Source: Bacteroidales bacterium (GTDB taxonomy: Bacteria > Bacteroidota > Bacteroidia > Bacteroidales > JBGRPZ01). From it: DNA of 64,000 bases. The notes under the pieces were generated by a model. It searched no databases and was not told where the DNA came from. It saw nothing but the letters and a program-made list of their open reading frames with translations. Positions 6,450-50,998 of this stretch are shown here, in pieces. The stretch lies in NCBI GenBank assembly GCA_041725955.1, contig JBGRQE010000001.1, positions 47,890-111,889 on the forward strand. Direction: 5' to 3'. The number at the start of each line of letters is the position of its first letter. Position 1 is the stretch's first letter. A program made the translations under genes and the position numbers.

Positions 6450-6479
6450 GGGGCTGTCTTCTAAGGCAGTCTTTTTTTA
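6450..6479 (+). terminator. rho-independent terminator after the ABC ATPase gene
   Basis: GGCTGTC-TTCTAA-GGCAGTC stem (with G.U pairs) followed by T7. Confidence 0.5.
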
Positions 6480-6487
6480 TGGATTTA

Positions 6488-6520
6488 GATTTCGTGTTTC
6501 GATTTTCGAAACACGAAATC
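6488..6520. repeat. TTCG-rich palindromic intergenic element (copy 1)
   Basis: Perfect 15-bp arms GATTTCGTGTTTCGA / TCGAAACACGAAATC around a 3-nt loop. Shares the core ATTTCGTGTTTCG with the element at 28239. Confidence 0.8.
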
Positions 6521-7238: not shown

Positions 7239-8009
7239 ATGGTAAAGCCAAAAAAACATTTAGGACAACACTTTCTTACAGATCTAAGTATAGCTCAGCG
7301 CATTGTGGATGCACTATCAGAAGAACAACCAGATATTATTGAGGTAGGTGCCGGTACAGGAGTACTTACTCAATACCTTATGAAACGACCCAATCAGAAA
7401 CTTCATATTATAGAAGTGGATACTGAGTCTGTTGAATACTTAAATGCAACCTGGCCACAACTCAGTGAAAATTTATACTTCCATGACTTTCTGAAATACC
7501 CATTGGAGAAAATTACTGAAGATAAGTTCGCCCTTATAGGTAACTTCCCTTATAATATCAGCTCTCAGATATTTTTTAGAGTTCTTGATTATAAAGAACA
7601 AATTCCTGAAGTAGTAGGAATGTTGCAGAAAGAAGTGGCTGAAAGATTGGCTGCAGGTCCAGGGTCAAAAACTTATGGCATTCTTAGTGTTTTGCTACAA
7701 GCATACTATGATGTTGAATATTTATTTACTGTAGATGAAACAGTATTCAACCCTCCTCCAAGAGTAAAATCAGCAGTAATTCGTTGTACCCGAAATAATG
7801 TGAAAAAACTTGATTGCAACGAAAAGCTTTTTAAGCAAATTATAAAAGCATGCTTTAATACGCGTAGAAAAACTGTGCGTAATGGTTGTAAAGCATTGAT
7901 TGAAGATAAATCAGTAATGACTGATGAAATATTTAATAAACGTCCTGAACAACTTTCTGTAGAACAGTTTGTGTGGCTAGCAAACTTCGTAGAGAAGTAT
8001 AGAAGGTAG
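7239..8009 (+). CDS. rsmA: 16S rRNA (adenine1518/1519-N6)-dimethyltransferase
   Basis: 256 aa. KKHLGQHFL N-terminus, SAM-binding EVGAGTGVLT, and NFPYNISS motif. Confidence 0.92.
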   Translation: MVKPKKHLGQHFLTDLSIAQRIVDALSEEQPDIIEVGAGTGVLTQYLMKRPNQKLHIIEVDTESVEYLNATWPQLSENLYFHDFLKYPLEKITEDKFALIGNFPYNISSQIFFRVLDYKEQIPEVVGMLQKEVAERLAAGPGSKTYGILSVLLQAYYDVEYLFTVDETVFNPPPRVKSAVIRCTRNNVKKLDCNEKLFKQIIKACFNTRRKTVRNGCKALIEDKSVMTDEIFNKRPEQLSVEQFVWLANFVEKYRR

Positions 8010-8015
8010 TTTGAT

Positions 8016-8048
8016 GGATTCGGATTTCGAATTTCGAAACCCGAATCC
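8016..8048. repeat. TTCG-rich palindromic intergenic element (copy 2, variant)
   Basis: GGATTCGGATTTCGA-ATT-TCGAAACCCGAATCC: 15-bp arms with one mismatch and the same TTTCGA/TCGAAA centre as copy 1. Confidence 0.75.
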
Positions 8049-8169
8049 CCAATTTATAGCATTTCTAAGAACAATTTTACTCTTCTATAGCATACATTTG
8101 CCCGATTTTTAACGGGGTTGTAAATATATTGAATAGAAATTATTCAAAGAGTTAAGATTACAAACAGAA

Positions 8170-12778: not shown

Positions 12779-13996
12779 ATGAGGATAAATTATATTATTA
12801 GTTGTTCTTTAGTTTTTTTTATTTCCATTATTATTTTTTCTTCCTGTCAGCAAAATAAAGAAAAGTGGCAATCTGAGAATGCAACAAAATATTTAGATCA
12901 AAAAACACTTAGAAAGAAGAGGGTTTTTTCATTTCCAATAGATTCTAATATTGCTTTAGTGAATAGCAATTCTTTTAGAATAATGAATGACAGTATAATG
13001 TTCTTTGGAAATAATGATCAATCAAAGGTATTTTATTACAATATTAAAAATGGGGAATTATTAAATTCATATTATTTTCCTCCAGAGGGGCCTAATGCAT
13101 TAATAAAAGATATGTGTAATTATTTTATACCTTCTTCTATTGATGATGTAATTACGTTTTGCCACAGAAAAGCAGAGCTAGGAGTTTATCAGGATGGACA
13201 ATTGAAGCATAGAATATCTCTTGTTGATACAGCGAATTTTAATAAGAAAGCTCGCCAAGGTAAGAATCCATTTTTTTCGTATCCTGCCAAACCTAGTATA
13301 TTTGATGTCGTTGATTCTTCAGTTTTTGTTACATATTTTCAGTCAAAAGAAACTGAATGTGGAAATATTCCTGCCTTTAGAGTTTTTAAAATTCCAATCA
13401 ATACTCATGATAGTATTAAAGCAATGATTCCGCTGGCACAGAATTATAAAACAGGGTATTATGGACATTCTTTTAATTCCACATTGCCTTGTTTAACTTA
13501 TAATTCAAAAAAGAAAGTTATTTCTTCACACCAACCAGCATCTCATTATATTGAAAATTACAATTTGAATGGAGATTTATTGGAAACTAGTTTTGTAGGA
13601 TCTAAATATTATAGCAACGTAATACCGCCGTTTTCAGATCAATATGAGAAAAACAGAAGAGAGGAAGTAGATCAATATCTTGCTACCCAGTTTCACTTTT
13701 TAGACTTAATTTATGATCAATATCGTAATTTGTATTATCAGTGGTGTAAACTTCCTGTGCCTCTTGATATATTTAAGCAAACGGGCTGGTATACTTATGA
13801 GTGTAGCTTATTGATTCTTGATGAGGATTTAAAAAAAATTGGAGAGGTAGATTTCAAAGGGGGAAATAATTCAAACAACTATAATGTGTGGAATACAATG
13901 ATTTGTCCTGAAGGATTAATTTTAATGAGGAATGATTTGTATGAAAAGAACCCCAATTCTTTCTATTTTGAAGTTTTTGATGTTGTTGAGAAATAA
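12779..13996 (+). CDS. lipoprotein, possibly DUF4221/TolB-like six-bladed propeller family
   Basis: 405 aa. Lipoprotein signal with Cys23 (IIIFSSC). The size and the EGPN motif (PPEGPNALI) recall DUF4221-type Bacteroidota lipoproteins. The family call is from memory only. Confidence 0.4.
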   Translation: MRINYIISCSLVFFISIIIFSSCQQNKEKWQSENATKYLDQKTLRKKRVFSFPIDSNIALVNSNSFRIMNDSIMFFGNNDQSKVFYYNIKNGELLNSYYFPPEGPNALIKDMCNYFIPSSIDDVITFCHRKAELGVYQDGQLKHRISLVDTANFNKKARQGKNPFFSYPAKPSIFDVVDSSVFVTYFQSKETECGNIPAFRVFKIPINTHDSIKAMIPLAQNYKTGYYGHSFNSTLPCLTYNSKKKVISSHQPASHYIENYNLNGDLLETSFVGSKYYSNVIPPFSDQYEKNRREEVDQYLATQFHFLDLIYDQYRNLYYQWCKLPVPLDIFKQTGWYTYECSLLILDEDLKKIGEVDFKGGNNSNNYNVWNTMICPEGLILMRNDLYEKNPNSFYFEVFDVVEK

Positions 13997-15139: not shown

Positions 15140-18100
15140 TTGAAGATTGTTATGGTTCGTTTTTTAATTCATAGGCCAATTGCTGTATTTATGGTAGTGT
15201 TGGCTCTTACTTGTTTTGGGGTAGTTGCATGGTTTAAAATTCCTCTGTCTTTGATGCCGAATATTGATATACCTGAAATAGGAGTATATTTTAATTTACC
15301 AGGAAAATCGGCTCCACAAATTGAAAGACAGGTTTTGCAATCCTTACGGAAGTCATTGCAGCAAGTAGACAACATTAATAGTGTTGAAAGCAAAGCAAAA
15401 AATGAAGCAGCTATTGTTAAGCTTCGTTTGTCGTATGATGCAGATGTGCAAAGAGTGTATTTTGAGATCAACGAACAAATTGATCAGATGATGAGTCTTT
15501 TTCCCAAAGATATAACTCGTCCACTGGTAGTGAAAGCAAGTACTAACGATATTCCAACCTTTTATGTTGACGTATTTTCAAAGTCCCGACAGGGTAAATC
15601 TGTTTATTCTTTGTCCGACTTAAGTGTTTTGGCTGAAAAGGTTGTGAAACCTTATTTCGAACAGCTAAAAGAGATCGGATTTGTTGATATAGGAGGGGCT
15701 TCTTTTTCTGAAATTAGAATTCAACTTAAGCAACCCCAATGTGATGTTCTAGGCATAAATGAGACCGATCTATTGTCTATTTTAAGGGAAGAGCATGAGA
15801 TGGCTAGCGATATTCTTTTGCAAGAAGGTATGTTTAAGTATATATTGCACTTTGGGGCTACTTTAAATAGTATTGACCAGATAAAAAAAATGTGGATTTC
15901 TCTCCCCCAGGGGCGTAAATGTCAAATTGGCGATATTGCAGAATTAGAAAAGCATTCTTTACCTCCAAAAGGATTTTATTTTGCAGATAATAATCCAGCT
16001 ATTTTATTAGCTGTTAGTAAGCAAGCTGATGCTCGAATGGAGGATTTATCACAAAATATAGGGGCAACTCTTTCCACTCTTCAGCAATTATACCCAGACT
16101 TACAATTTAGGGTCAATAGAGATCAGAGCACGCTTTTAAAATATTCGATAAGCAGTCTTCTGCAGAGTTTATTATTGGGAATAATACTTTCTTTATTAAT
16201 TTCTTTTGTTTTTATTAAAAGATGGAGAGAGTCTTTGATTATTCTAATTTCTATACCTGTTTCCTTAATTATTGTTTTATTCTGTTTTTACTTTCTCGAC
16301 TTTAGTTTAAATATCTTGTCGTTAAGTGGTTTAATACTTGGCTTGGGAATGATGATTGATAATTCAATTATTGTCGTTGAAAATATTGGACAGTATGTCA
16401 AGAAAGGTATAAACCTAGAAGAATCGTGTGTTGTAGGAAGTGAAGAGATGATTAAGCCTCTGTTGAGTTCAATGCTGACTACTTGCAGTGTTTTCTTTCC
16501 CTTAATCTTTTTAAATGATCTTACAGGGGCAATTTTTTTAGAACAAGCAATTGCTATTGGATTAAGTTTGGCGATTTCTTATTTGTTTTCAATTCTGGTT
16601 CTTCCGGTTTTATATTTTAATTTTTATAAAGGTAAAAACAATTTCCTTTCTGCATATTGTTCTAAAAGCCAAGAGGACTCAAGGCTTGATAAGATTTATT
16701 TTTTGAGTGTAAAGAAATTATTTTGTTTTCCACGTTTAGCAATATTGGGTTTTATATCGCTAATTTTTATAGGAATCTTTTTGTTTTTCTTTGTTCCTCG
16801 TTCCGGATTACCAGAATTCCGAGATAAGGATGTTGTTGTGAAAATAAAATGGAATCAGTCAATATCTCTTCAGGAGAATCAAAAACGAGTAAAGAATTTG
16901 TTTAATGCTATTCCTGATTTAAATATTCGATGGCATATACAGTGTGGTGAATCAGGCCTTAAATTTCAGAAAAAATTATTTCATGAAGCAGAGTATTGTA
17001 GTGTTTATGTTGATACTCATTCATTTGATGAATTAGGCGTTTTTTCAAATGAATTTACTAAACAAATGAAAAAGGCTTATCCTGAAGCATCATTAGACTT
17101 TTCCAGACCTAAGAGAAGCTTTGAACAAATATTTGCTCAAAGTAAAGATTTCTTAACTTTTCGATTTTATCCTAATCCTAAAGACAAAATGCATATTGGA
17201 AAAGAAGATTATGTAAAAGGGGTTTTAGATTCATTGTCTTTATTGAAAACAAACTATAAGCTTGAAAGGAAACCATGTCTTCATTTGGTAATAAACCGAA
17301 AAAAACTATTATTATACGATATTTCTTATAATAAAATGTTAGAGATTCTGGAGAGGAATATTGGTTGTACTTATGATATGATTATTCCTTCGGAAGGAAA
17401 TTATATGCCATTGCGTATTAAAAAAGAGTCAGAGTATTTTTTTGAATCTTTTAATAATCTGAAGGTTTCGAATGCTACCGGAGAGTTGTTTTCTATAAAA
17501 GAATTTATTAAAACGAGCTATAAAGAAGATCAAAAACAAGTTTGTGGCGATATTCGAGGGGTTTATTATGATTTTCCCTTAAATGATTCTAAGGTTGAAG
17601 AAGTGCAAGAAAAAGTTACTACCTTGAAAAAAAATCGTCCCAGGTGGACCTGTTTACTAACAGGAAGCTATTATGATGATCAGGAAATGTTTGAACAGTT
17701 TAGCTTAATACTATTACTGGGGGTTTTTATTCTTTACTTTATCTTAGCTGCTCAATTTGAATCTTTTCTTCAACCATTAATAGTCTTAATTGAAATTTTC
17801 TTTGATTTGTGCGCTATATTTATGCTACTAATCATTTCTGGTCAGAGTTTAAATCTGATGTCTGGGATAGGTATTGTAGTTGTTAGTGGAATAATAATTA
17901 ATGATTCCATACTAAAAATGGACACAATGAATCGTTTGCGAAGAAAGGGAGTTTCTGTTGAGCAGGCGATTCATATTGCAGGGAAGCTTCGGTTACGTCC
18001 AATTTTAATGACAAGTTTGACAACTATTCTTGCACTAATTCCATTGTTTTTTTCAAGTGGATTGGGTGCAGATTTACAAAAGCCTATGGCAATAGTTATT

Positions 18101-18193
18101 GTTGGGGGTATGTTGTTAGGAACTTTAATTAGTCTGTATTTTATTCCTCTTGCCTATTTTCTGATCTATTCTTCAAAAAACAAGAGGATATGA
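15140..18193 (+). CDS. RND efflux permease, AcrB/AcrD/AcrF superfamily (subunit 1)
   Basis: 1017 aa with 12-TM/two-large-loop architecture. TM4-like motif GLGMMIDNSIIVVENI. The track start is TTG at 15140; the first ATG is at 15152. Confidence 0.88.
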   Translation: MKIVMVRFLIHRPIAVFMVVLALTCFGVVAWFKIPLSLMPNIDIPEIGVYFNLPGKSAPQIERQVLQSLRKSLQQVDNINSVESKAKNEAAIVKLRLSYDADVQRVYFEINEQIDQMMSLFPKDITRPLVVKASTNDIPTFYVDVFSKSRQGKSVYSLSDLSVLAEKVVKPYFEQLKEIGFVDIGGASFSEIRIQLKQPQCDVLGINETDLLSILREEHEMASDILLQEGMFKYILHFGATLNSIDQIKKMWISLPQGRKCQIGDIAELEKHSLPPKGFYFADNNPAILLAVSKQADARMEDLSQNIGATLSTLQQLYPDLQFRVNRDQSTLLKYSISSLLQSLLLGIILSLLISFVFIKRWRESLIILISIPVSLIIVLFCFYFLDFSLNILSLSGLILGLGMMIDNSIIVVENIGQYVKKGINLEESCVVGSEEMIKPLLSSMLTTCSVFFPLIFLNDLTGAIFLEQAIAIGLSLAISYLFSILVLPVLYFNFYKGKNNFLSAYCSKSQEDSRLDKIYFLSVKKLFCFPRLAILGFISLIFIGIFLFFFVPRSGLPEFRDKDVVVKIKWNQSISLQENQKRVKNLFNAIPDLNIRWHIQCGESGLKFQKKLFHEAEYCSVYVDTHSFDELGVFSNEFTKQMKKAYPEASLDFSRPKRSFEQIFAQSKDFLTFRFYPNPKDKMHIGKEDYVKGVLDSLSLLKTNYKLERKPCLHLVINRKKLLLYDISYNKMLEILERNIGCTYDMIIPSEGNYMPLRIKKESEYFFESFNNLKVSNATGELFSIKEFIKTSYKEDQKQVCGDIRGVYYDFPLNDSKVEEVQEKVTTLKKNRPRWTCLLTGSYYDDQEMFEQFSLILLLGVFILYFILAAQFESFLQPLIVLIEIFFDLCAIFMLLIISGQSLNLMSGIGIVVVSGIIINDSILKMDTMNRLRRKGVSVEQAIHIAGKLRLRPILMTSLTTILALIPLFFSSGLGADLQKPMAIVIVGGMLLGTLISLYFIPLAYFLIYSSKNKRI

Positions 18194-21100
18194 GAACTCA
18201 AAAACCAGTATCTATTCCTTATTCTTTTGGTTTTGTTTTAATATTTACTCTTCTTGCTATTGTAGGATTTTCTTTAATACCAAAATTAAATTTTACGCCT
18301 TTTCCAAGTGAGAAAAATAGGACCTTCTTGGTAAACTATTCGTGGCCAAAACATTCTGCTCAGCAAGTTAATGATCGAATAACCTGTGTTTTAGAAGCTC
18401 AATTAAATCATATAAAGGGAATAAAAAGTATAGAGGCAACGTCAAATTATGGTTGTGGTGAATTGCTTATAAAGGTTTTACCTAAGGTTGATACAGATAA
18501 ATTTAGGCTTAAATTACAAATGCTTTTGCGCAGTGTTTTTAATGAATTGCCCAAAGGAATTGATTTTCCAAGAATTAGTTATCAAACATATAAAAAGTAT
18601 AGTTCAAAAAGGCCTATCATTGTTTTGAGTATAAGCAGCACAAAAGATCTGTTAAGTATTGAAGATTTTTTTTACAGAGATATGTCATTTCAGTTATCAA
18701 GGATAAAAGGAGTGGGAAAAATAAAACTGCTTGGTCAAAAAGATAGCCACTTGAATTTCTATCTCAAAGAAAAACTTATACAATCTTTGGGGCTTTCGAA
18801 AAGAGAGATTAAGAATGTTTTGAATATTGCCTTTAAGGAGAATGATTTAGGAATTGTTTTCAATAAAAATAGTCTAGGGAATAAGTCTTCAGAAATAAAC
18901 TGTATTGCAAGAGTAGAAAAAGCAAATTCTATAAAAGATCTAAAACTTATTCCTGTTCGCAAATGTCAGGAGCGTATTATTTTAATTAAAGATATATGTG
19001 ATAGCGTTGCACAAAAAGATATATATAAAACTATACTAAGGGTTAATGGAAAAAAAGCTTTGTATGTAAATATTTATCCTGATGATGCTACAAATCAATT
19101 GTCTTGTAGAAAGAAAATTCTGGATAAAATATGTGAGTTACAACATTCTACAGAAAAGGACTTTACTGTTTCTTTAGAGGAAGATCATTTAAAGCATTTA
19201 GAATCAGAAATGTTTCGTGTTTTATGTCGAACATTGATTGCAGTGCTAGTACTGATGGCCTTTTTATGGCTATATCGACGAAATATTTGGTATATACTTA
19301 TACTCACATACTGTTTATTGGTGAATATGGGGATTGGCTGTATATTCTATGTTCTTTTTGGAATAGAAATTCACTTATATTCTTTGGCAGCTATTACAAT
19401 TGTACTGGGCTTAGTATTGGATAATATGATGGTAATGCTAGATCATATTCAACATTTCAAAAATAAAGCAGCAATTTTGCCAATTGTAGCTGCTTGTATG
19501 ACTAGCATTTCAGCTATTGGAATGATCTTTTTTTTACCGGAAGAAAGGCAAATTGGCTTGGCCGATTTTGCTTATGTTTTAATAATCAATTTAAGTATTT
19601 CCATATTTTGCAGTTTGTTTTTTCTTCCCGCGATAATTACTTTTTTTCCACAAAAGAAAATATATAATAAACTTAGAAGTCGAAATAGAGTAAAAAGGAT
19701 ATTGAAATTAAATAAATATTATCATTCATTAATTATTCGACTACGAAAATATAAGATAATAATAATCATTCTTTCTTTTTGGATTATAGGATTTCCAATT
19801 TATTTACTCCCTCCTAAATGGGATGCAGATCATTTTGCAGCCCGAATTTATAACGCAAGTATTGGATCAAGAAAATATCAATATGAGTTGAAAGAGCATG
19901 TGGATCGTTTATTGGGAGGGTGTTTATACATTTATAATTATCATATTTTTGATGGAACAAGTAGTTGGGAACCTGATGAAGACAAAGGTTATCATCTAAA
20001 GATTGAGGCTGATTTTCCTGCAGGGGTTAAGATTTCGCATATAGATGAAGTTGTACGTAAAATTGAGTCTAAGATGAAAACATTTCCTGCAATTAACAAA
20101 TATAAAGCCAGGATTGATAACCAAAAATTACATTTCGAAGTTGATTTTCTTTCTTCATTAAAGAAAAACAACTTGCCAATGGCTTTAAGAATAAAAATGA
20201 TTCATATGTCGGATCAATTTAAAGCTGCATCCTGGCATATTTATGGTGTAAAACCTGACTATTATAGTAAGCCTATCTCAAATTATTATGTTGAAGATAA
20301 TACTTTTCTGAAATTGGAAATGAGAGGTCCTGATAGGTTAATACTAAATAAGTTGTTAGAGAATATTGTTAAGCGTATCAAAGAGTATCCTCGTATTTCG
20401 CAAGTTCAAATTTTGAATAATAATGAAGATGTTTCAAAATATAAAAGCTTTAATTTAAATCTAAATAAATCCTTTCTTGGGATTTATAATATCAAGAAAG
20501 CAAAGGTTCAATCCGCTATCAGTGAGTATAATCAAGAGGGTAATGAATTTATGCATGGATATATTGATGGGCATCCTTATGTTTTTTGTTTGAATAAAAA
20601 AGAGGATGTAAAGTGGTCATTATGGAATTTAAGAAACAAACCATTAATAGATAGTTTATCATTTAGAGGAGATAATTTATTTTCCATTTCACCTAAGGAT
20701 AAATACGTTTCTATATGTCGTAAAAATCAGGCCTATTTTCAGGTTCTGGCATTTAAATATAATGCAAGTTCTACAGCAAAAAATAAATTATTACAAGATA
20801 TATTGAAAGTAGAAAATGCAAAATTACCACCAGCTTATTATCTCTCTTTGGAGAATCAAGAATTAATGAATGAATTAAAGGAAAAAAAGAAACAACCCTA
20901 TTATTTAGTTCTGTTAGCATTAGTTTCTGTTTTTTTTATATGCGCTATATTATTCGAGTCATTTATTTTGGCTTTATTGATTATACTTATTTTACCTATA
21001 AGTTTGTGTGGAGGATTATTTGTCTTTTATTTTTTTGATGTGCATTTTTCTGAGGGTGGCTTGGCTTCGTTCTTAATTCTTAGCGGTTTAGTCGTAAATG

Positions 21101-21381
21101 CTGCAATATATCTATTGGCAGAATTCAATAGAAAATTGAAAATACAAAAGAATAGAAATCAAAAAAGTATAGGTGTTTATCTAAAAGCTTTTAATCATAA
21201 GATAACTTCAATAATTTCAACAATTATATCTACATGTTTAGGGATGTTGCCATTTATCTTCTTTGGGCAAAAGAATGACTTTTGGTATAGCTTGGCTGCT
21301 GGAACTATTGGGGGACTTTTATTCTCAATTATTGTATTAATTATTTTTATTCCTTTGTTTCTGAAATTCGATTCTAAATGA
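18190..21381 (+). CDS. RND efflux permease, AcrB superfamily (subunit 2, divergent)
   Basis: 1063 aa. ATGA overlap with the upstream RND gene. TM4-like motif LGLVLDNMMVMLDH. The C-terminal half again has 6 TM helices. Confidence 0.8.
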   Translation: MRTQKPVSIPYSFGFVLIFTLLAIVGFSLIPKLNFTPFPSEKNRTFLVNYSWPKHSAQQVNDRITCVLEAQLNHIKGIKSIEATSNYGCGELLIKVLPKVDTDKFRLKLQMLLRSVFNELPKGIDFPRISYQTYKKYSSKRPIIVLSISSTKDLLSIEDFFYRDMSFQLSRIKGVGKIKLLGQKDSHLNFYLKEKLIQSLGLSKREIKNVLNIAFKENDLGIVFNKNSLGNKSSEINCIARVEKANSIKDLKLIPVRKCQERIILIKDICDSVAQKDIYKTILRVNGKKALYVNIYPDDATNQLSCRKKILDKICELQHSTEKDFTVSLEEDHLKHLESEMFRVLCRTLIAVLVLMAFLWLYRRNIWYILILTYCLLVNMGIGCIFYVLFGIEIHLYSLAAITIVLGLVLDNMMVMLDHIQHFKNKAAILPIVAACMTSISAIGMIFFLPEERQIGLADFAYVLIINLSISIFCSLFFLPAIITFFPQKKIYNKLRSRNRVKRILKLNKYYHSLIIRLRKYKIIIIILSFWIIGFPIYLLPPKWDADHFAARIYNASIGSRKYQYELKEHVDRLLGGCLYIYNYHIFDGTSSWEPDEDKGYHLKIEADFPAGVKISHIDEVVRKIESKMKTFPAINKYKARIDNQKLHFEVDFLSSLKKNNLPMALRIKMIHMSDQFKAASWHIYGVKPDYYSKPISNYYVEDNTFLKLEMRGPDRLILNKLLENIVKRIKEYPRISQVQILNNNEDVSKYKSFNLNLNKSFLGIYNIKKAKVQSAISEYNQEGNEFMHGYIDGHPYVFCLNKKEDVKWSLWNLRNKPLIDSLSFRGDNLFSISPKDKYVSICRKNQAYFQVLAFKYNASSTAKNKLLQDILKVENAKLPPAYYLSLENQELMNELKEKKKQPYYLVLLALVSVFFICAILFESFILALLIILILPISLCGGLFVFYFFDVHFSEGGLASFLILSGLVVNAAIYLLAEFNRKLKIQKNRNQKSIGVYLKAFNHKITSIISTIISTCLGMLPFIFFGQKNDFWYSLAAGTIGGLLFSIIVLIIFIPLFLKFDSK

Positions 21382-21403
21382 GTCTGTTCAAATGAGTCTG
21401 TTC
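21376..21403. repeat. perfect 14-bp tandem duplication spanning the RND stop codon
   Basis: AAATGAGTCTGTTC occurs twice back to back (21376-21389 and 21390-21403). Confidence 0.9.
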
Positions 21404-21417
21404 CAATAAGTGTGTCA

Positions 21418-21682
21418 CTATCACTCTTACCTTAAATCACTACCATTCCCACCTTTAAATCCACCGACACCTGCCCTTTAATTGATAAAAACCTCCTAGA
21501 TATTTGACGAAAACCTTCTAGGTATTTGATAAAAACCTCCTAGATATTTGGTGAAAACCTCCTAGATATTTGACGAAAACCTTCTAGGTATTTGATAAAA
21601 ACCTCCTAGATATTTGATAAAAACCTTCTAGGTATTTGATAAAAATCAAGTGTGTGTTAGGTATTAACTTACTGGGTTGCGT
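21418..21682 (+). repeat. composite head / 7x22-bp tandem repeat / tail element (copy A)
   Basis: Head 21418-21483. Seven contiguous 22-bp units at 21484-21637 (GATAAAAACCTCCTAGATATTT and variants). Tail 21638-21682. The architecture is shared with 49130-49372. Confidence 0.9.
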
Positions 21683-21686
21683 ATTA

Positions 21687-21713
21687 AAGGGGTCTGGTTA
21701 GATCCTTGTTTTT
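21687..21713 (+). terminator. possible terminator-like hairpin following repeat element A
   Basis: AAGGGGTC-TGGTTA-GATCCTT (imperfect stem) followed by GTTTTT. Confidence 0.3.
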
Positions 21714-21820: not shown

Positions 21821-23155
21821 TTACAGTAGTTCTGAAGCCAGATTGGCCAGCTCCGATCGTTCGCCCTTTTCCAACCGGATATGAGCATAAATATCATGAT
21901 GTTTAATTCTGTCGATTAGGTATGATAGTCCGTTACTTTGACTATCTAAGTATGGGGTATCAATTTGGTAAACATCGCCAGTGAAGATGATTTTTGTACC
22001 TTCCCCAGCACGAGTAATAATGGTTTTTACCTCGTGAGGAGTAAGGTTTTGGGCTTCATCTACAATAAAAAAGATATTCGACAAACTTCGTCCACGGATA
22101 TAGGCAAGAGGAGAAATAACAAGCTTTTCGGTTTGAAGAGACTCTTGAATTTTTCCGTGTTCTGGGTCAGATTCATTATACTGATTTTGGATAAATTTAA
22201 AGTTATCCCATAGCGGTTCCATATAAGGTCCGAGTTTATCCTTGATATCTCCGGGTAAATATCCAATATCTTTATTGCTTAGAGGAACTACAGGGCGGGC
22301 AAGTAGTATTTGCTTATAGTCGCGTCTTTGCTTTAGTGCACCAGCAAGAGCAAGGAGTGTTTTTCCTGAACCTGCCTTTCCCATAAGAGTAACCAATTTT
22401 ATATTTGGATTTAGTATGGCATGGAAAGCAAAGACTTGTTCTGCATTTCGTGGTGTAATTCTTTGCACCATTTTCTTTTGAAGGTGCTCTATTCTTTGAT
22501 TTACAGGGTTATAATAACATAGGACAGAAGTTTTCTGATAATGAATTATATAGTAGTGATTAGGGATAGGTTCTGTGATTCCAATATCCTCAGGTGCAAT
22601 TTCTCCTTCTTTGTATATTCTATCAATAATTTGGGGTTCAACTTCCATGGTAGTTTTTCCAGTATAAAGTTCGTCTACATTTTGAACCTTACCTGTTTCA
22701 AAATCTTCGGCTTGCATGCCTAATGATTTTGCTTTTAGTCGTAGGTTTATATCTTTACTTACGAGTACTGTTTTAGCTTTTGGGTTTTCTTGTGCTATGC
22801 ATAGGGCAGCATTTAGTATTCTGTGGTCGGCTTTATTACTATCAAAAATTCTTGTTGCATCCGGGCCAGAGTGACCATTCATAATTACTTTGAATCTTCC
22901 TGCTCCGGGGTGCTCAAGTTGTAACCAATCTTTTAAAGTATGCTTTTCGCTTAGTTTGTCCAGGATTCGAATAAATTCTCGGGCCTCGAAATTTTTAGTA
23001 TCACTGCCTTTTTTGAAGTTGTCGAGTTCTTCCAAAACGGTTATAGGAATCACGACATCATTATCCTCAAAAGAGTGTATTGCCATGTGATTGTATAAAA
23101 TTACAGAAGTGTCAAGAACATAAATTTTTCTTGCTGGTTCATTTGCTTTTGGCAT
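21821..23155 (-). CDS. PIN-domain/PhoH-like ATPase (PhoH2/YlaK type)
   Basis: 444 aa. N-terminal PIN-like domain (IYVLDTSVIL...). C-terminal PhoH ATPase (Walker A GKAGSGKT, Walker B FFIVDEAQN). Confidence 0.88.
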   Translation of the reverse strand: MPKANEPARKIYVLDTSVILYNHMAIHSFEDNDVVIPITVLEELDNFKKGSDTKNFEAREFIRILDKLSEKHTLKDWLQLEHPGAGRFKVIMNGHSGPDATRIFDSNKADHRILNAALCIAQENPKAKTVLVSKDINLRLKAKSLGMQAEDFETGKVQNVDELYTGKTTMEVEPQIIDRIYKEGEIAPEDIGITEPIPNHYYIIHYQKTSVLCYYNPVNQRIEHLQKKMVQRITPRNAEQVFAFHAILNPNIKLVTLMGKAGSGKTLLALAGALKQRRDYKQILLARPVVPLSNKDIGYLPGDIKDKLGPYMEPLWDNFKFIQNQYNESDPEHGKIQESLQTEKLVISPLAYIRGRSLSNIFFIVDEAQNLTPHEVKTIITRAGEGTKIIFTGDVYQIDTPYLDSQSNGLSYLIDRIKHHDIYAHIRLEKGERSELANLASELL

Positions 23156-27258: not shown

Positions 27259-27314
27259 GGTTCGAGTTTCGGGTTTCGTTGTTCGTGTTTCGTTGTTCGA
27301 GTTTCGTTATTCGG
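27259..27314. repeat. 8 x 7-nt tandem array (GTTTCGN)
   Basis: GGTTCGA GTTTCGG GTTTCGT TGTTCGT GTTTCGT TGTTCGA GTTTCGT TATTCGG, followed by a partly complementary CGAAA-rich segment (27321-27345). Confidence 0.85.
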
Positions 27315-27381
27315 GTGTGAAAAACAGAATGCGAAAAACGAAATTAGAGATCCAAAAAATTAATCAAATAATATATTTAGT

Positions 27382-28224: not shown

Positions 28225-28238
28225 ATTTTTGAGATTTG

Positions 28239-28271
28239 TATTTCGTGTTTCGAAAACCGGAACACGAAATA
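28239..28271. repeat. TTCG-rich palindromic intergenic element (copy 3)
   Basis: TATTTCGTGTTTCG-AAAAC-CGGAACACGAAATA: 14-bp arms with one mismatch, sharing ATTTCGTGTTTCG with 6488-6520. Confidence 0.8.
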
Positions 28272-36312: not shown

Positions 36313-37659
36313 TTAGACTTGTTCATTTTTGAGCATACGGTAGAGGGTTGATTTACCAATCTGAAGTTTTTTCGACACCAGAAGGACATTTTGATTATAC
36401 TTATCAAGATAATAACGAATTATTTTTTTTTGGTAGCTTGCCAAAGGCATTTCTTCTTCATGTTTTTCTAGGAAATCGGGTGTTTCTGTAAAAGAAATAT
36501 CTTTAGAATCAATTATATTATTATCACTTAAAACTACTGAAAGATCAACAATAGCTTTAAGTTCTCTGATATTTCCAGGAAATTTATAAGAAGACAATTT
36601 TTCCAGAGCTTGATGGCTTAATGTTTTTATTGGTTTTTGATTTTCTTTGCAAAATTCACTACAAAAATATTTAGCAAGAAGAGAGATGTCATTTCTCCGA
36701 TCGCGTAATGGAGGTAAGAAAATGGGCAATCCTAATAAACGATAATATAGATCCTTACGGAAGTTTCCATTTTTAACTTCTTCAATAAGGTTTTTGTTAG
36801 ATGCTATAATAAGTCTGAAATTTGTTTTTATTATTTTGTTGCTTCCAATACGATGAAATTCTTTTTCTTGTAATACTCTTAATAGTTTTACTTGTATATT
36901 AGGAGGGATTTCAGTGATTTCGTCTAGGAAGAGTGTTCCTTTATTTGCTTCCTCAAGTTTCCCTATTCTACGTTTATCCGCACCAGTAAAAGCACCTTTT
37001 TCATGCCCAAACAATTCACTTTCCATCAGAGAGCTTGGGGTCGCACTTAGGTTTATTGCAACAAATGATCGGTTTTGCCTATTCGAATTTCTGTGAATGG
37101 CTTTGGCTACCAACTCTTTTCCTGTTCCTGTTTCTCCTTGAATAGAAATAGAAATATTGGTTTCCGTAGCTTTTTTCATCAATTCAAAAACTCTCTTTAA
37201 GCATGTGCTTTTTCCTTTTATATCTTTTCTGAAATTCTTTATAATGTCCTTTTCTGAATAATATTTATTGTAGTTTATGGATGTATCTTTTTTATTTTGC
37301 TTAATGTTTTCTACAACTTCCCATAGTCGTTGTTTTACATCCTCATCTTTTTCGAAATAATCACATGCCCCTGCCTTTAGAACATTAATAGCAGTAGATA
37401 TTTTTTCTTGTCCCGAAATCATTATAACAGGAGTGAAAATATCTATTGATTTTATTCTCTTTAAAACATCAATTCCTAACATATCGGGTAAGGAGTAATC
37501 CAGAGAAATTAATGATGGATTTAAATGCATATGTTTTAAGCAATCTACGCCCTTGGAGAAGTGATATACTTTGTTTGCTGGATTTTTTTCGAGGAAGTGT
37601 TTTAGCATAGCCCCATAAAAAGAGTTGTCCTCTACGATAAAGATCCTAAATGGCTCCAT
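36313..37659 (-). CDS. sigma-54-dependent response regulator (no adjacent kinase)
   Basis: 448 aa. REC domain (RIFIVEDNS...SLDYSLPDM). AAA+ domain (GETGTGKE, canonical GAFTGA, FLDEITEI). C-terminal HTH (SKKLQIGKSTLYRMLK). Confidence 0.9.
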   Translation of the reverse strand: MEPFRIFIVEDNSFYGAMLKHFLEKNPANKVYHFSKGVDCLKHMHLNPSLISLDYSLPDMLGIDVLKRIKSIDIFTPVIMISGQEKISTAINVLKAGACDYFEKDEDVKQRLWEVVENIKQNKKDTSINYNKYYSEKDIIKNFRKDIKGKSTCLKRVFELMKKATETNISISIQGETGTGKELVAKAIHRNSNRQNRSFVAINLSATPSSLMESELFGHEKGAFTGADKRRIGKLEEANKGTLFLDEITEIPPNIQVKLLRVLQEKEFHRIGSNKIIKTNFRLIIASNKNLIEEVKNGNFRKDLYYRLLGLPIFLPPLRDRRNDISLLAKYFCSEFCKENQKPIKTLSHQALEKLSSYKFPGNIRELKAIVDLSVVLSDNNIIDSKDISFTETPDFLEKHEEEMPLASYQKKIIRYYLDKYNQNVLLVSKKLQIGKSTLYRMLKNEQV

Positions 37660-42944: not shown

Positions 42945-43928
42945 TCAGTAGTCTCTTGATCGGAGTTTTTCTGCAAACTCTCTGAGATATATCTTTTTGT
43001 TTTCCTCAATATTTATTTTATCGAGCGAATCCATTGCTTTCTGATAATATTGGTTGATTTCTTGATTTACAATTTCTTTAATATTTAGATCATTGTAAAT
43101 GTTTGTCACCTCTTTAACTTTAATTTCATCCTCATGTTGCATTTCTGGGTTGAAATAATTTTTTAGAGAGGCACATTGTTTTCCAGAAGCTAGTTCAAGG
43201 GCTTTTAGGCAAAGGAATGTTTTTTTATTGGTTACAATATCATTTCCGTTTACTTTACCAAACTTACTTTCATCTGAATAAACATCCAAGAGATCATCTT
43301 TCAATTGAAATGCTAATCCGATATTAATTCCATAGCTGTATATGAAATCTGCATCATCTTTACTGGCATCAGCTAAAATAGCACCTGTTTTCAATGAAGC
43401 AGCAACCAGTACAGCTGTTTTTAGACGTATCATTTCGATATAATCGTTGATACATACCTGATCTTGATTTTCAAAATCCATATCATATTGTTGTCCTTCA
43501 CAAACTTCAATAGCGGTTTGTGAAAACAATTCTAAAGAATCCTTTAATCGGGATGAGTCTGTTTTTAGTGCAGTCTGGAATGCTTTTGCAAATAGGGCAT
43601 CTCCTGAAAGGATAGCGATATCGCTATTCCATTTTCTGTAAACAGTAGGTTTCCCTCTTCGAATAGGGGCTTTATCCATTATATCGTCATGAATAAGGGT
43701 AAAGTTATGAAACATCTCAAGGGCTACAGCAGGATAAAGGGCTGTTTTGTAGTTGCCATCAAACATTTCACATGCAATTAAGGCTAAAACTGGTCTTAAT
43801 CGTTTACCGCCTTGATTCAAAGTGTATTCAATAGGAGAATATAATAATTCTGGCTCCTGAACTTTTGAAATCTCACAAAGAATTTCAGTGAGTTCTTTTC
43901 TAAGAAAATCGATATCGTGCATTTCCAA
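42945..43928 (-). CDS. polyprenyl diphosphate synthase (short/medium-chain, GGPP/FPP synthase-like)
   Basis: 327 aa with Asp-rich motifs LIHDDIMD and KDDLLD. Confidence 0.85.
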   Translation of the reverse strand: MEMHDIDFLRKELTEILCEISKVQEPELLYSPIEYTLNQGGKRLRPVLALIACEMFDGNYKTALYPAVALEMFHNFTLIHDDIMDKAPIRRGKPTVYRKWNSDIAILSGDALFAKAFQTALKTDSSRLKDSLELFSQTAIEVCEGQQYDMDFENQDQVCINDYIEMIRLKTAVLVAASLKTGAILADASKDDADFIYSYGINIGLAFQLKDDLLDVYSDESKFGKVNGNDIVTNKKTFLCLKALELASGKQCASLKNYFNPEMQHEDEIKVKEVTNIYNDLNIKEIVNQEINQYYQKAMDSLDKINIEENKKIYLREFAEKLRSRDY

Positions 43929-44031: not shown

Positions 44032-45003
44032 TTATTTATTTCTCTCGGCAGTATATTTTACAAGTGTTTCAAGAGAATTTCTTGATTTAGAATCAGGGAA
44101 TTCTTTTAGAATATCCAATGCTTTATTTAAATATTCATACATCTTATCATTGGCATATTTAATACCACCACTTTGATTTACTTCTTTAATTACTTCCATA
44201 ACTTTCTCTTCATTATCATTATGCTTTTTAATGGTTTTGATAATCCTTTTTCTTGTATCGGAAGAAGAGTTGTTTAGCATATGGATAAGAGGAAGTGTCA
44301 TTTTCTGTTCCTTTATATCAATGCCAGAGGGTTTGCCTGTTTTATTGACTACCTGATAATCGAATAAGTCGTCTTTTATCTGAAAGGCAATGCCTACATA
44401 TTCGCCAAAAAGACGCATTTTTTCAATTGTTTCTTTATTTGCTTCTACCGAAGCTGCACCAACAGCACAACAAGAGGCAATTAGCGAAGCTGTTTTTTGT
44501 CGGATAATATCAAAGTAGATATCTTCTTTGATATCCAATTTTCTTGCTTTTTCTATTTGTAGCAATTCGCCTTCACTCATTTCACGTACTGCTGTTGAGA
44601 CAATTTTTAATAAGTGAGTTTCATCATTGTCAATTGAAAGAAGAAGGCCACGAGAAAGTAGGTAATCGCCTAAAAGTACAGCGATTTTGTTTTTCCATAA
44701 TGCCTTGATAGAGAATACGCCTCTGCGAAAGTTAGAATCATCAACAACGTCGTCGTGAACTAGAGTGGCAGTGTGCAATAATTCGATTAATGTGGCAGCT
44801 CTATAGGTAGAAGGATTTATAGATCCACAAATGTCGGCGATAAAAAAGACGAACATTGGACGCATTTGTTTCCCTTTTCTTTTTACCAAGTATTTAGTGA
44901 TAACATTCATAAGGGGAACATTACTTTGCATTGAGGCAGAGAAGATCTTATCAAACTCGGCAAAATGATGTTTGAGGTGTGTTTTAAGTTCTTTTAATAA
45001 CAT
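44032..45003 (-). CDS. polyprenyl diphosphate synthase (long-chain, IspB-like)
   Basis: 323 aa with Asp-rich motifs LVHDDVVDD and KDDLFD. Confidence 0.85.
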   Translation of the reverse strand: MLLKELKTHLKHHFAEFDKIFSASMQSNVPLMNVITKYLVKRKGKQMRPMFVFFIADICGSINPSTYRAATLIELLHTATLVHDDVVDDSNFRRGVFSIKALWKNKIAVLLGDYLLSRGLLLSIDNDETHLLKIVSTAVREMSEGELLQIEKARKLDIKEDIYFDIIRQKTASLIASCCAVGAASVEANKETIEKMRLFGEYVGIAFQIKDDLFDYQVVNKTGKPSGIDIKEQKMTLPLIHMLNNSSSDTRKRIIKTIKKHNDNEEKVMEVIKEVNQSGGIKYANDKMYEYLNKALDILKEFPDSKSRNSLETLVKYTAERNK

Positions 45004-47354: not shown

Positions 47355-48833
47355 TTATAATTCTTTCCTTAGTCGTGCCACTGATATATTCAATTGTTCT
47401 CTGTATTTGGCAACCGTACGTCGTGCAATATTGTACCCCTTTTCTTTTAAAATTTTAGTTAGTTGCTCGTCTGTAAGTGGTTTTTTCTTGTTTTCCGTTT
47501 GAATACAATCGTCTAGAATTTTTTTTATCTCGCGTGTGGATACTTCTTCACCATCAGACTTGGTTAAAGATTCGGAAAAGAAACTCTTTAGAAGAAAAGT
47601 TCCAAATGGAGTTTGTACATATTTTGAGTTTGCCACCCTTGAGATTGTAGAGATATCTAGATTCACTCTTTCAGCGATATCTTTTAAGATCATAGGTCTG
47701 AGTTTGGTTTCATCGCCAGTAATGAAATAATTAATTTGATATTCCATAATGGCATTCATGGTAACCAAAAGCGTATTTTGTCTTTGCTTGATGGCATCTA
47801 TAAACCACTTGGCAGAGTCTATTTTTTGCTTTACAAACATTAGGGCATCTTTCTGCTGTTTGTTTTTCTTATTCTCAGAATATGCCTCCAACATATTTGT
47901 ATAAGACCTGCTAAGTCTTAGTTCAGGTACGTTTTTTGAGTTAAGCGATAATTCCAGATCTCCATTATTATTGGTAATTATAAAATCGGGAAGAATATAA
48001 TGGTTTGTTTTGCTGGTTTCGCTTAATGAGTTTCCTGGTTTCGGATTTAGCTTTAGTACTTGCTCGATGGCATCTTTCAATCTATCAGCTGTAATACCCG
48101 AGCGTTTTATAATTTTCTCATAATGTTTTTTTGTAAATTCATTAAAGTAACGATCTAAAACCAATATAGCATCATCAATACTCTGTTTGTCTTCTTCCGA
48201 TTTTTTTCGTTTTAGCTGTATAAGTAGGCATTCTTGCAAACTTCGAGCACCCACCCCTGAAGGATCGAATGATTGTATAATCTCAAGAATGCCAGTGAGT
48301 TCTCCTTGGTCTGTGGTTAAGTTTTGAGAAAAGGCAAGATCATCGACCATGGCTTCAACATCACGTTGAAGATAGCCCGAATCATCAAGGTTTCCAATTA
48401 TATAAGATGCTATCTGATATTGTCTGTTATCAAGTATATGCTCGCCAAGTTGATTGATTAGTAATTCTTGGAAGCTTAAACCAGATATAAAAGGAATATC
48501 TCTGGGCTCATCATCTCCCATTGAGTTATTTGAACTTAGTTTATAGGAAGGAGTGTCATCATCTTCCATATAATCAGATAAATCGAATTCGTCTTCTTTA
48601 TTATATTCGTCTTCTTGTTTTTCTTCGTTATAATTATCGCTTTCTGCATTTTCGCTTGTATCGGCATCAAACTGATCGGGGTCGGCCATATCTTCCAGAG
48701 CAGGATTTTCTTCTATCTCTTGTTTAATGCGTTGCTCAATTGCCACAGAAGGTATTTGTAGAAGTTTCATCAACAGAATTTGCTGAGGAGAAAGCTTCTG
48801 TAGCAGTTTCTGCTGTAACTTTTGATTTAACAT
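47355..48833 (-). CDS. rpoN: RNA polymerase sigma-54 factor
   Basis: 492 aa. Gln/Leu-rich region I (MLNQKLQQKLLQKLSPQQ), acidic region II, and RpoN box ARRTVAKYR. Confidence 0.95.
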   Translation of the reverse strand: MLNQKLQQKLLQKLSPQQILLMKLLQIPSVAIEQRIKQEIEENPALEDMADPDQFDADTSENAESDNYNEEKQEDEYNKEDEFDLSDYMEDDDTPSYKLSSNNSMGDDEPRDIPFISGLSFQELLINQLGEHILDNRQYQIASYIIGNLDDSGYLQRDVEAMVDDLAFSQNLTTDQGELTGILEIIQSFDPSGVGARSLQECLLIQLKRKKSEEDKQSIDDAILVLDRYFNEFTKKHYEKIIKRSGITADRLKDAIEQVLKLNPKPGNSLSETSKTNHYILPDFIITNNNGDLELSLNSKNVPELRLSRSYTNMLEAYSENKKNKQQKDALMFVKQKIDSAKWFIDAIKQRQNTLLVTMNAIMEYQINYFITGDETKLRPMILKDIAERVNLDISTISRVANSKYVQTPFGTFLLKSFFSESLTKSDGEEVSTREIKKILDDCIQTENKKKPLTDEQLTKILKEKGYNIARRTVAKYREQLNISVARLRKEL

Positions 48834-49129
48834 CTTTTTCTGTTTGAATATTTTCCGAACAAAATTTCGGATTCCCCGAAGTGGTGTCTTTGAAACCCTG
48901 TTATTTGCTCTGATTATTAACGTTTTTCCTTATCAATCCCTATATGTTTAGGTGTAAAAAAAGTGTTATCTGTTTATTATTGACTTGGAATTATAAACTT
49001 AAAACACTTTGATTTTTTGAAGGTAGCAAAAACGGTTTACCTAATTTGTTTCATTTGATTTCTGAGACAAAGATAAGATTTTTATGAGATGTTTATTTTT
49101 ATATTTAGCAAGTCTTACTGTCCTAATTG

Positions 49130-49372
49130 CTATCACTCTTACCTTAAATCACTACCATTCCTACCATTGAATTCCACGACACCTAACATTAATTGACTTT
49201 AAATCTCCTAGGTATTTGGTAAAAACCTCCTAGATATTTGATGAAAACCTCCAAGGTATTTGATGAAAACCTCCTAGATATTTGATGAAAACCTCCAAGG
49301 TATTTGATAAAAACCTCCAAGGTATTTGATGAATATCTACTGGGGGTGGATGTTAACTTATTGGGTTGTGGT
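49130..49372 (+). repeat. composite head / 6x22-bp tandem repeat / tail element (copy B)
   Basis: Head 49130-49194; its first 32 nt are identical to copy A. Six units at 49195-49327 (GATGAAAACCTCCAAGGTATTT / ...CCTCCTAGATATTT). Tail 49328-49372 shares TTAACTTAYTGGGTTGYG with copy A. Confidence 0.9.
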
Positions 49373-49466
49373 GTAATCATTACCTGCCTTGGTCGAAAGG
49401 TAAGGGTACATATTAAAGCTAGCTATATGGAGTGCGTTTATCTAGAGAATATAATTGTCGTGTACT

Positions 49467-49555: not shown

Positions 49556-50998
49556 TTAGAATTCTGCATTTTGAGGAGTTCTTGGAAAAGGAATAACGTC
49601 TCTTATATTATTCATTCCTGTAACAAATAAGATAAGGCGTTCAAAACCCAGACCAAAACCTGCATGCGGAGCGGTTCCAAATCTACGACTATCTAAATAC
49701 CACCACATTTCTTTTTGTGGGATATCCATTTCGTCCATTCTGTCGGTAAGTTTTTTATAATCTGCTTCACGAACCGAACCGCCAATAATTTCTCCAATTT
49801 GAGGGAATAGAACATCCATTCCTTGAACAGTCTTTCCATCTTCATTTTGCTTCATATAAAAAGCTTTAATTTCTTTAGGATAGTCTGTTAAAATTACGGG
49901 TTTCTTAAAGTGTTTTTCAACAAGGAAACGTTCGTGTTCAGATTGAAGGTCTATACCCCAATCTTCTACAGTATATTGGAATTTACCTTTTTTGTTTGGC
50001 TTTGAATTCTTTAAAATATTTACGGCCTCAGTATAGGTTAGGCGAACAAAATCGTTTTCCAAAACAAAACGAAGTTTTTCGATTAATCCCATAGGAGAAC
50101 GTTGATCTTTTGGTTTGTTCTTTTCTTCGTCGAACAATCGTTTTTCAAGGAAATCTAGATCTTCACTGCAATTGTCTAAAGCATATTGAACAAGATATTT
50201 CAACATATCTTCAGCCAAGTCCATATTATCGTTAATATCGTTGAAAGCTACTTCTGGCTCAATCATCCAGAACTCGGCAAGATGTCGAGAAGTGTTTGAG
50301 TTTTCTGCACGGAAGGTAGGTCCAAAGGTATAAACTTTAGAAAGAGCCATACAAGCAAGTTCTACTTCCAGCTGGCCAGAAACGGTTAAGTTTGTTGGTC
50401 GGCCAAAGAAATCTTGACTGTAATCTATTGCACCTTCTTCTGTTTTTGGAGGTTTGCTGATGTCGAATGTAGTAACATTAAACATCTCACCAGCTCCTTC
50501 ACAGTCAGATCCTGTAACGATAGGAGTATGTATGTTATAAAAATTTCTTTCGGTAAAAAATTTATGAACCGCATAAATCATGGCATGTCTTATTCTAAAG
50601 ACAGCACTAAAGGTATTTGTACGGAAACGTAAATGTGCTTTTTCTCTTAGAAACTCTAAAGAGTGTTTTTTTGGTTGTAGTGGGTATTCGTCGGGATTTG
50701 CTTCTCCCAGTACTTCTAATTCATTTGCCACTAATTCAACTTTCTGTCCACTTCCTTGTGATTCAACAAGATCTCCTTTTACAGAGATTGAGGCACCAGT
50801 ATGAATTTTAGATAGAAGATCAATATCAATCTTCTCAAAATCAACGACCACCTGAATGTTATTAATGGTTGAACCATCATTTAGTGCAATAAATGCTACA
50901 TTCTTGCTTCCTCTTTTTGTTCTAACCCAGCCTTTGATGACCACTTCCTGGCCGCATAAACTTTCTTGGAAAATTCTTTTGATCTCTGTCCTTTTCAC
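49556..50998 (-). CDS. asnS: asparagine--tRNA ligase
   Basis: 480 aa. N-terminal OB fold ([25 protein letters not shown]) and class IIb motifs ([27 protein letters not shown]). Confidence 0.92.

Follow-up and report, generated by a model that had tools for sequence, protein, structure and literature searches.

The window, by which is meant the whole stretch of 64,000 nucleotides that was analysed, carries one sequence module at two intergenic sites with unrelated flanks, here called copy A and copy B. Copy B lies within the 722-bp spacer between asnS and rpoN, with its head 297 bp from the rpoN ATG (the first-pass annotation had placed it at about 300 bp), and its plus strand is antisense to both neighbouring genes. 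Copy A lies between the convergent 3' ends of an efflux operon and of phoH2, where it starts 36 nt past the stop codon of an RND permease gene. The genes that frame the two copies, with two elements of the asnS-rpoN spacer that are given for context only, are as follows:

18190-21381, plus strand: RND permease gene
21821-23155, minus strand: gene of a PhoH2-type helicase (phoH2)
47355-48833, minus strand: rpoN
49068-49075, minus strand: TATCTTTG, candidate Bacteroidetes -7 box for rpoN (context only), which recurs upstream of rpoN in the related loci L001 and L002
49473-49504, minus strand: intrinsic terminator hairpin of asnS (context only), able to act bidirectionally and located 100 nt past the tail of copy B
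49556-50998, minus strand: asnS

Among the 42 open reading frames of at least 150 aa in the 64-kb window there is no transposase, integrase, replication or partition protein, and the neighbourhood is ordinary chromosome. The RpoN of the source has one 100% match in NCBI, its next relative shares 83% identity and all others share 75% or less. Copy A is followed by a terminator-like hairpin (21688-21707) that begins 7 nt beyond its tail. The efflux operon contains two consecutive RND permease genes (15140-18193 and 18190-21381) which overlap by 4 nt, the second being the one that ends 36 nt before copy A. The same 64 kb that hold rpoN also encode two sigma-54-dependent response regulators, each with a receiver and a Sigma54_activat domain (2863-4242 and 36313-37659, both on the minus strand), the first of which is adjoined by a histidine kinase gene (1512-2873). 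A second, small repeat family consists of hairpins (ATTTCGTGTTTCGA...TCGAAACACGAAAT) situated just past gene 3' ends at 6475-6519, 8010-8054 and 28226-28270, with a related site at 27260-27316 that is a TTCG-rich tandem with a period of 7/14 nt; these hairpin repeats resemble REP elements or a shared type of terminator.

Anatomy of the module

Each copy consists of a head of about 70 nt, an array of 22-nt tandem units and a tail of 40 nt. Copy A (21418-21682) measures 265 bp and copy B (49130-49372) 243 bp, so that the two differ in length by one unit. Their parts are arranged as follows:

21418-21488, plus strand: head of copy A, with 25 C and 3 G, ending in what looks like a decayed unit of 22 nt (21467-21488)
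21489-21642, plus strand: array of copy A, seven 22-nt units of types a and b in the order a-b-a, a-b-a, b
21643-21682, plus strand: tail of copy A, with the conserved core TTAACTTACTGGGTTGCG at 21664-21681
49130-49200, plus strand: head of copy B, with 22 C and 3 G; its first 32 nt are the same as in A and the remainder is 71% identical
49201-49332, plus strand: array of copy B, six 22-nt units of which the first is degenerate (AAATCTCCTAGGTATTTGGTAA)
49333-49372, plus strand: tail of copy B, G-rich and C-poor, with the conserved core TTAACTTATTGGGTTGTG at 49353-49370

The head opens with a G-free 32-mer, CTATCACTCTTACCTTAAATCACTACCATTCC, which is invariant between the copies and occurs at exactly two sites in the window (21418 and 49130), both on the plus strand, where shuffled sequences lead to an expectation of zero. 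Beyond the 32-mer the heads of A and B are identical in 29 of 41 aligned columns. The tails share 71% identity from end to end, and their core TTAACTTAYTGGGTTGYG, in which 16 of 18 nt are identical, is found in the window at 21664 and 49353 only. The first-pass annotation had described the same module twice on the same strand, with the first 32 nt identical, a common tail, lengths of 265 and 243 bp and six units in B, one fewer than in A. The positions of the 32-mer and of the tail core bear out the shared ends, as do unit search and repeat finding the unit numbers and lengths; for the remainder of the head, said to be about 75% identical, the similarity holds at the lower figure of 71%. With a background of about 71% the chance of 32 straight identities is 0.71^32, or approximately 2e-5 by our own arithmetic. 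Conservation is thus uneven, complete at the start of the head (32/32) and high in the tail core (16/18) against about 71% for the rest, which would imply that the outer ends are constrained or have recently been homogenised or converted.

In both heads the plus strand is C-rich and G-poor, and the two heads are the top two 71-nt windows for C-over-G skew on the plus strand of the entire window. The tails show the opposite bias, being G-rich and C-poor. Head and tail could also be regarded as merely decayed units of the array. A resemblance to the unit consensus is limited to the innermost 22 nt of the head, which match it at 14 of 22 positions in A and 10 of 22 in B compared with a random mean of 6.1/22, whereas the invariant outer 32 nt score 7/22, which is the random level. 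Because only this innermost segment resembles a unit, the head is taken to be a distinct module and not a decayed edge of the array.

The similarity between A and B breaks off sharply at both borders, and local alignments of the flanks are no better than those of shuffled sequences (P=0.98 on the left and 0.29 on the right). The same module at two sites with unrelated flanks excludes a segmental duplication, in agreement with the unrelated flanks noted at first pass. Adjoining the head of copy A is a 14-nt tandem repeat, AAATGAGTCTGTTC (2.9 copies, 21376-21415), that overlaps with the stop codon of the RND permease; nothing comparable is seen beside copy B.

Array units and their turnover

Tandem Repeats Finder detects 22-nt arrays in the window at 21482-21645 (7.5 copies) and 49201-49333 (6.0 copies) only. 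A unit search allowing three mismatches recovers seven units in A (21489-21642) and five in B (49223-49332), with the degenerate sixth unit of copy B located at 49201-49222. The units abut directly and have no spacers between them, which rules out a CRISPR array. The contig belongs to a metagenome-assembled genome, and unit counts in arrays of 130-150 bp such as these may be inexact if it was built from short reads.

Three types of unit can be distinguished. Type a (CCTCCTAGAT, with CCTAGA) is common to both loci, while type b (CCTTCTAGGT, the TCTAGG variant) is found in copy A only and type c (CCTCCAAGGT, the CCAAGG variant) in copy B only, as had been noted at first pass for the two variants. 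The alternation of types in copy A gives rise to a 66-nt period with 93% matches, compared with 85% at 22 nt. In copy B the degenerate first unit is followed by a-c-a-c-c, and a 44-nt period reaches 92% matches against 89% at 22 nt. Variants that are private to a locus, together with these higher-order periods, point to local duplication of blocks of units by slippage or unequal exchange after the loci had separated. The unit patterns thereby support the earlier proposal that the arrays evolved within each locus, and suggest that they changed independently by multi-unit duplication.

Distribution among relatives and in public collections

Five related loci (L001-L005) were compared with the window, L001 being the closest relative with 83% RpoN identity. 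L003 and L004 have the same gene order as the window, namely CorA, DAHP synthase, asnS, rpoN, a 203-aa gene and an outer-membrane beta-barrel gene. Their asnS-rpoN spacers measure 75 and 184 bp respectively, compared with 722 bp in the window, and contain no tandem array. There is likewise no such array in the two closest loci, L001 and L002, in which the gene upstream of rpoN differs, and none in the 331 bp downstream of phoH2 that precede the contig end in L005 (78% PhoH2 identity). Since the spacers of L003 and L004 are short and free of arrays, the comparison of spacer sequences shows copy B to be a gain specific to this lineage, and copy A was probably gained in this lineage also.

Tandem arrays of other kinds are present in these loci. 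L001 has two intergenic arrays with periods of 21 and 22 nt (1-48 and 13196-13329), one of them at the contig end. Kinship of the module units with these arrays was considered and dropped, as there is no sequence relation. Short-period intergenic minisatellites may be common in the clade. In L004, which is a complete 4.1-Mb genome, an intergenic gap (7513-8096) contains 4.8 copies of a 121-nt unit with 95% identity. Where the window has two adjacent polyprenyl synthetase paralogues (42945-43928 and 44032-45003), L001 and L002 show one.

The origin of the sequence in a metagenome-assembled genome raises the question of an assembly artefact, in which a repeat-induced join or a collapsed array would have produced the arrangement; that the contig of L001 ends inside a tandem array indicates that such arrays can break assemblies. 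The probability of an artefact is close to negligible, however, given that the gene order on both sides of copy B matches that of the relatives and that the polA-phoH2 side of copy A matches L005. Differences between the copies in unit variants and in the divergent stretches of head and tail also identify them as distinct loci and not one sequence placed twice.

No further copy of the module, whole or partial, is found in the window or in L001-L005, against which low-stringency blastn searches with head, tail and units yield only words of 9-16 nt at chance level. The exact 32-mer of the head and a tolerant two-unit pattern have no match in species-representative genomes. JGI metagenomes gave no hit to the two-unit pattern or to a 21-mer from the head, and viral contigs gave none to the unit, head and tail patterns. 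A blastn search against plasmids and phages returned no match either, which rules out a plasmid or phage remnant. The first-pass annotation had spoken of a defined family, a description that is not upheld by two copies without a further member in the window, the five related loci or the public collections searched.

Coding potential and RNA structure

The plus strand of the element has stop codons in every unit. The sole open reading frame over the element encodes 63 aa on the minus strand of copy B, where it exists because type-c units lack TAG; it has no counterpart in copy A and matches no protein family. A word-indexed search found no homologue of this reading frame. An exhaustive HMMER search gave 24 hits, and those inspected are almost all translated short tandem arrays of other kinds (with periods of, for example, 11 or 22 aa), one being a leucine-rich-repeat protein. 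Judged from its reading frames, the element is non-coding.

Two of the HMMER hits were checked as DNA and correspond to 22-nt arrays on two unrelated metagenome contigs, L006 (450-725) and L007 (799-965), of which the latter has the palindromic core AATACCT-N3-AGGTATT. In the best rotation, their units and those of the module agree at 16-18 of 22 positions. Random 22-mers reach at least 16/22 about once per 1,000 trials, and 18/22 in none of 20,000. The flanks of the L006 and L007 arrays show no similarity to head or tail, and the arrays were rejected as homologues; the resemblance of the units, attributed to library size and search selection, is probably due to chance.

At the gathering score Rfam gives no hit, and the best sub-threshold scores of 20-23 bits, against cut-offs of 57-100, derive from a CCUCC motif. 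Folding z-scores relative to dinucleotide shuffles are -0.43 and +0.58 for copy B and -1.26 and +0.06 for copy A, and hence show no excess of structure. Pairing between head and tail had been raised at first pass, but on either strand the RNAduplex energies sit at the shuffle mean, and local scores for inverted repeats between head and tail are at chance level. Taken from two copies, these comparisons reveal no sign of a structured RNA or of a gene in the module.

It could still be argued that the module acts at the RNA level, with the C-rich, G-poor head of the plus strand serving to load Rho or the CCUCC-bearing units of that strand acting as an antisense RNA, or with the minus strand titrating ribosomes or an RNA-binding protein. 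The extreme C-over-G skew of the two heads is consistent with the former, as is the position of copy A in the 3' untranslated region of the efflux operon, shortly before the terminator-like hairpin. For the minus strand, the units read UAGGAGGU or UUGGAGGU and provide six or seven AGGAGG-like motifs per copy. A weak csRNA match below threshold in both copies, driven by the CCUCC motif, also speaks for an RNA-level role. Such a role is nevertheless quite unlikely. The type-b units break the AGGAGG core to AGAAGG, the copies have no promoter motif in common on either strand and no common terminator on the minus strand, and the plus strand of copy B is antisense to both of its neighbours. In addition, the Rfam threshold is never reached and the folding z-scores stay between -1.26 and +0.58.

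Relation to the candidate rpoN promoter

The end of the copy B head lies 55 nt upstream of TATCTTTG, the candidate -7 box of rpoN. The asnS-rpoN spacer contains one perfect match to the TAnnTTTG motif, at 49075 on the minus strand, which is outside the element and between it and rpoN. As there are 87 perfect TAnnTTTG motifs in the window, a single match in the spacer is at chance level and the promoter assignment is an inference only. The repeat units themselves contain only one-mismatch versions of the -7 motif, whose spacing to a TTTG is wrong. Behind the -7 box that recurs in relatives, rpoN has an apparent leader of about 230 nt (48834-49075, minus strand) with a small hairpin at 48866-48880, and the 80 nt that precede the rpoN ATG align with the 2640-2807 region of L001, the 83% relative.

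The proximity of copy B to this candidate promoter brings up the possibility that the units are binding sites for a protein on DNA, in an array similar to iterons or centromeres, and that copy B modulates the expression of rpoN. A strict period of 22 bp is close to two helical turns, so that bound proteins would share one face of the helix; the units have a conserved core, TATTTGRYRAAAACCT, and those of types b and c contain the short palindrome ACCT-N3-AGGT. This palindrome is broken in all seven type-a units, out of 13 units in total. Copy A, being placed between convergent 3' ends, has no promoter to regulate, and there is no replication, partition or regulator gene beside either copy. Considering also that plasmid and phage matches are absent and that the relatives run rpoN without such an array, a binding array has only a small probability.

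Interpretation

The explanation that we favour, with a probability of roughly 50%, is that head, 22-nt array and tail form a lineage-restricted, non-coding interspersed minisatellite module that is selfish or neutral. That it constitutes an interspersed family is an extrapolation from the two copies known. The module would be copied to new intergenic sites by something that recognises its conserved, asymmetric outer ends, and would settle where it is harmless, that is downstream of terminators and upstream of core promoters. After its arrival each array would alter on its own, with blocks of one to three units being duplicated or lost; replication slippage or unequal recombination are the likely routes and could account for the locus-specific variants as well as for the difference of one unit in length. 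Any effect on neighbouring genes such as rpoN would be a by-product. Against the selfish-repeat interpretation stand the inverted termini, target-site duplication, IS5-like ends and transposase that were looked for in the window and not found, together with the lack of any related sequence in the collections searched.

A function for the host could equally account for the fully conserved 32 nt and for the marked C-over-G skew of the heads. The module would then be an element in host use, whose invariant G-free head and phased units are recognised by a cellular factor. In one form of this proposal, a minus-strand RNA could present six or seven Shine-Dalgarno-like AGGAGG motifs just upstream of rpoN, within a phylum in which Shine-Dalgarno pairing is largely dispensed with, and titrate ribosomes or an RNA-binding protein; in another, the module could be a platform for Rho loading or protein binding that tunes the expression of sigma-54 and of the efflux pump through the number of repeats. 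We consider host use to be very improbable. The first-pass annotation had likewise proposed a functional module, which finds no support in the Rfam and folding results or in the transcriptional settings, as these differ between copy A, between convergent 3' ends, and copy B, between a terminator and the candidate rpoN promoter. Its overall interpretation therefore stands as far as the module is modular, dispersed and locally evolving, and fails with respect to a functional family.

For a selfish or neutral module several practical consequences follow. Arrays of this kind break or distort short-read metagenomic assemblies and can mislead gene callers, as illustrated by the 63-aa reading frame over copy B, and strain tracking could make use of them as variable-number markers. 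With copy B in place the asnS-rpoN spacer has grown to 722 bp, compared with about 75-184 bp otherwise, and the likely rpoN promoter is 55 bp from the element, so that a side effect on the expression of sigma-54 is conceivable. Unless a host function is demonstrated, current understanding is unchanged.

Comparison with known repeat elements

The closest known design is that of BrickBuilt, a minisatellite-bearing MITE of Porphyromonas gingivalis, which belongs to the same order, Bacteroidales, and in which a leader and a tail enclose 23-nt repeats that have no spacers (Klein et al. 2015, PMC4596501). The same layout is seen here, in that both copies have head, 22-nt units and tail in matching order. 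BrickBuilt is present in 19 copies which are strictly intergenic and often located just past the terminator of a gene, and its BLAST matches outside P. gingivalis are confined to the close relative P. gulae (PMC4596501). Its repeat number differs between strains, and both the number and the variants of its units differ between loci; the units contain frequent stop codons and have no match in Rfam (PMC4596501). The module thus shares with BrickBuilt the intergenic habit (as seen for both copies in the 64 kb), a position past terminators, confinement to one lineage, the locus-specific turnover of the array, the stop codons in the units and the lack of an Rfam match. The units, in contrast, have no sequence similarity (AGACCATAGTATCCTCTCATATG against AAACCTCCTAGATATTTGATGA), and the best cyclic alignment of the module unit to the BrickBuilt unit on either strand scores below the shuffle mean. 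BrickBuilt also has predicted long stem-loops, a leader of up to 285 nt and a tail of up to 318 nt, and is active as a promoter in reporter constructs in E. coli (PMC4596501). The module has a head of 71 nt, a tail of 40 nt and no predicted long stem-loops, and is known from two copies as opposed to 19.

A comparable arrangement is found in the BOX element of Streptococcus pneumoniae, which has the structure boxA-(boxB)n-boxC, is mostly intergenic and varies in length with how many internal modules are present (Croucher et al. 2011, PMC3049150). Large copies of BOX can create spurious open reading frames, and a stem-loop is predicted to form by pairing of boxA with boxC (PMC3049150). Like BOX, the module has two different end modules around a variable tandem array, of seven units in A and six in B. 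BOX differs in having terminal inverted repeats and target-site duplications, neither of which is found in the module, in which head-tail pairing is at chance level; it moreover belongs to a different phylum and has no sequence relation. The boxB unit is about 45 nt in length, as compared with 22 nt for the module unit.

The layout that is common to BrickBuilt, BOX and the module leads to the possibility that the latter is a true MITE of this type, which is moved in trans by a transposase encoded elsewhere and whose outermost ends have been lost or were never displayed by these two copies. In BrickBuilt, leaders and tails erode from their distal ends and both terminal inverted repeats are kept in 4 of the 19 copies (PMC4596501), so that missing IS5-like ends in two copies are not decisive. 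Copy B has one inverted match in which 10 of 11 positions are complementary (49135-49145 against 49397-49407); this is within chance (P=0.30) and has no counterpart in A. The best matches between the ends of the module do not exceed those of shuffled controls. IS5-like 12-nt ends (GAGACCTTTGCA / TGCAAAGGTCTC) with at most two mismatches do not occur near either copy, and their count across the window is that expected by chance. No target-site duplication was detected either, as the flanks share only words of 4-5 nt, at offsets that differ between A and B and never at the borders. The sharp stop of the A/B similarity at both ends is ill-suited to a truncated longer element, the 64 kb contain no transposase, and a stable stem-loop as in BOX and BrickBuilt is missing. 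On balance a true MITE is unlikely, and as far as the two copies show, a classical MITE with inverted termini, target duplication or an IS5-type end can be rejected. Chunjie-type MITEs, considered for their supposed internal sub-repeats, were dropped as an analogue, since according to the review in question they are ordinary MITEs whose inverted termini measure 21 bp and whose direct repeats measure 9 bp.

Other tandem repeats share individual traits with the module. PgRS/MITE464, also of P. gingivalis, has 41-nt units, repetitive flanking segments and IS5-like terminal inverted repeats (PMC4596501). It is like the module in being interspersed in a Bacteroidales species and in having internal tandem direct repeats. 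The MIRU of mycobacteria, attributed to Supply et al. in 1997, are reportedly units of 46-101 nt located within operons, where overlap with stop and start codons is frequent. They are similar to the module in that tandem units without inverted termini are found in variable number at many intergenic loci, and unlike it in lacking distinct head and tail modules. Plasmid iterons come close in period and number, as the gamma origin of R6K has seven 22-bp iterons, which adjoin a rep gene and an AT-rich region in the replicon; the six or seven direct repeats of the module have the same period. The module, by contrast, is chromosomal and set among housekeeping genes, without a rep or par gene and without a match to plasmids or phages.

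The sequence family described here is new, whereas its architecture is already known. If the interpretation as a selfish or neutral minisatellite module holds, repeats composed of a head, a minisatellite and a tail are not peculiar to Porphyromonas and the streptococci, and would be present, with unrelated sequences, in uncultured Bacteroidales as well. By analogy, the module appears to work in the manner of BrickBuilt and BOX, and would be filed neither in those families nor as a MITE.
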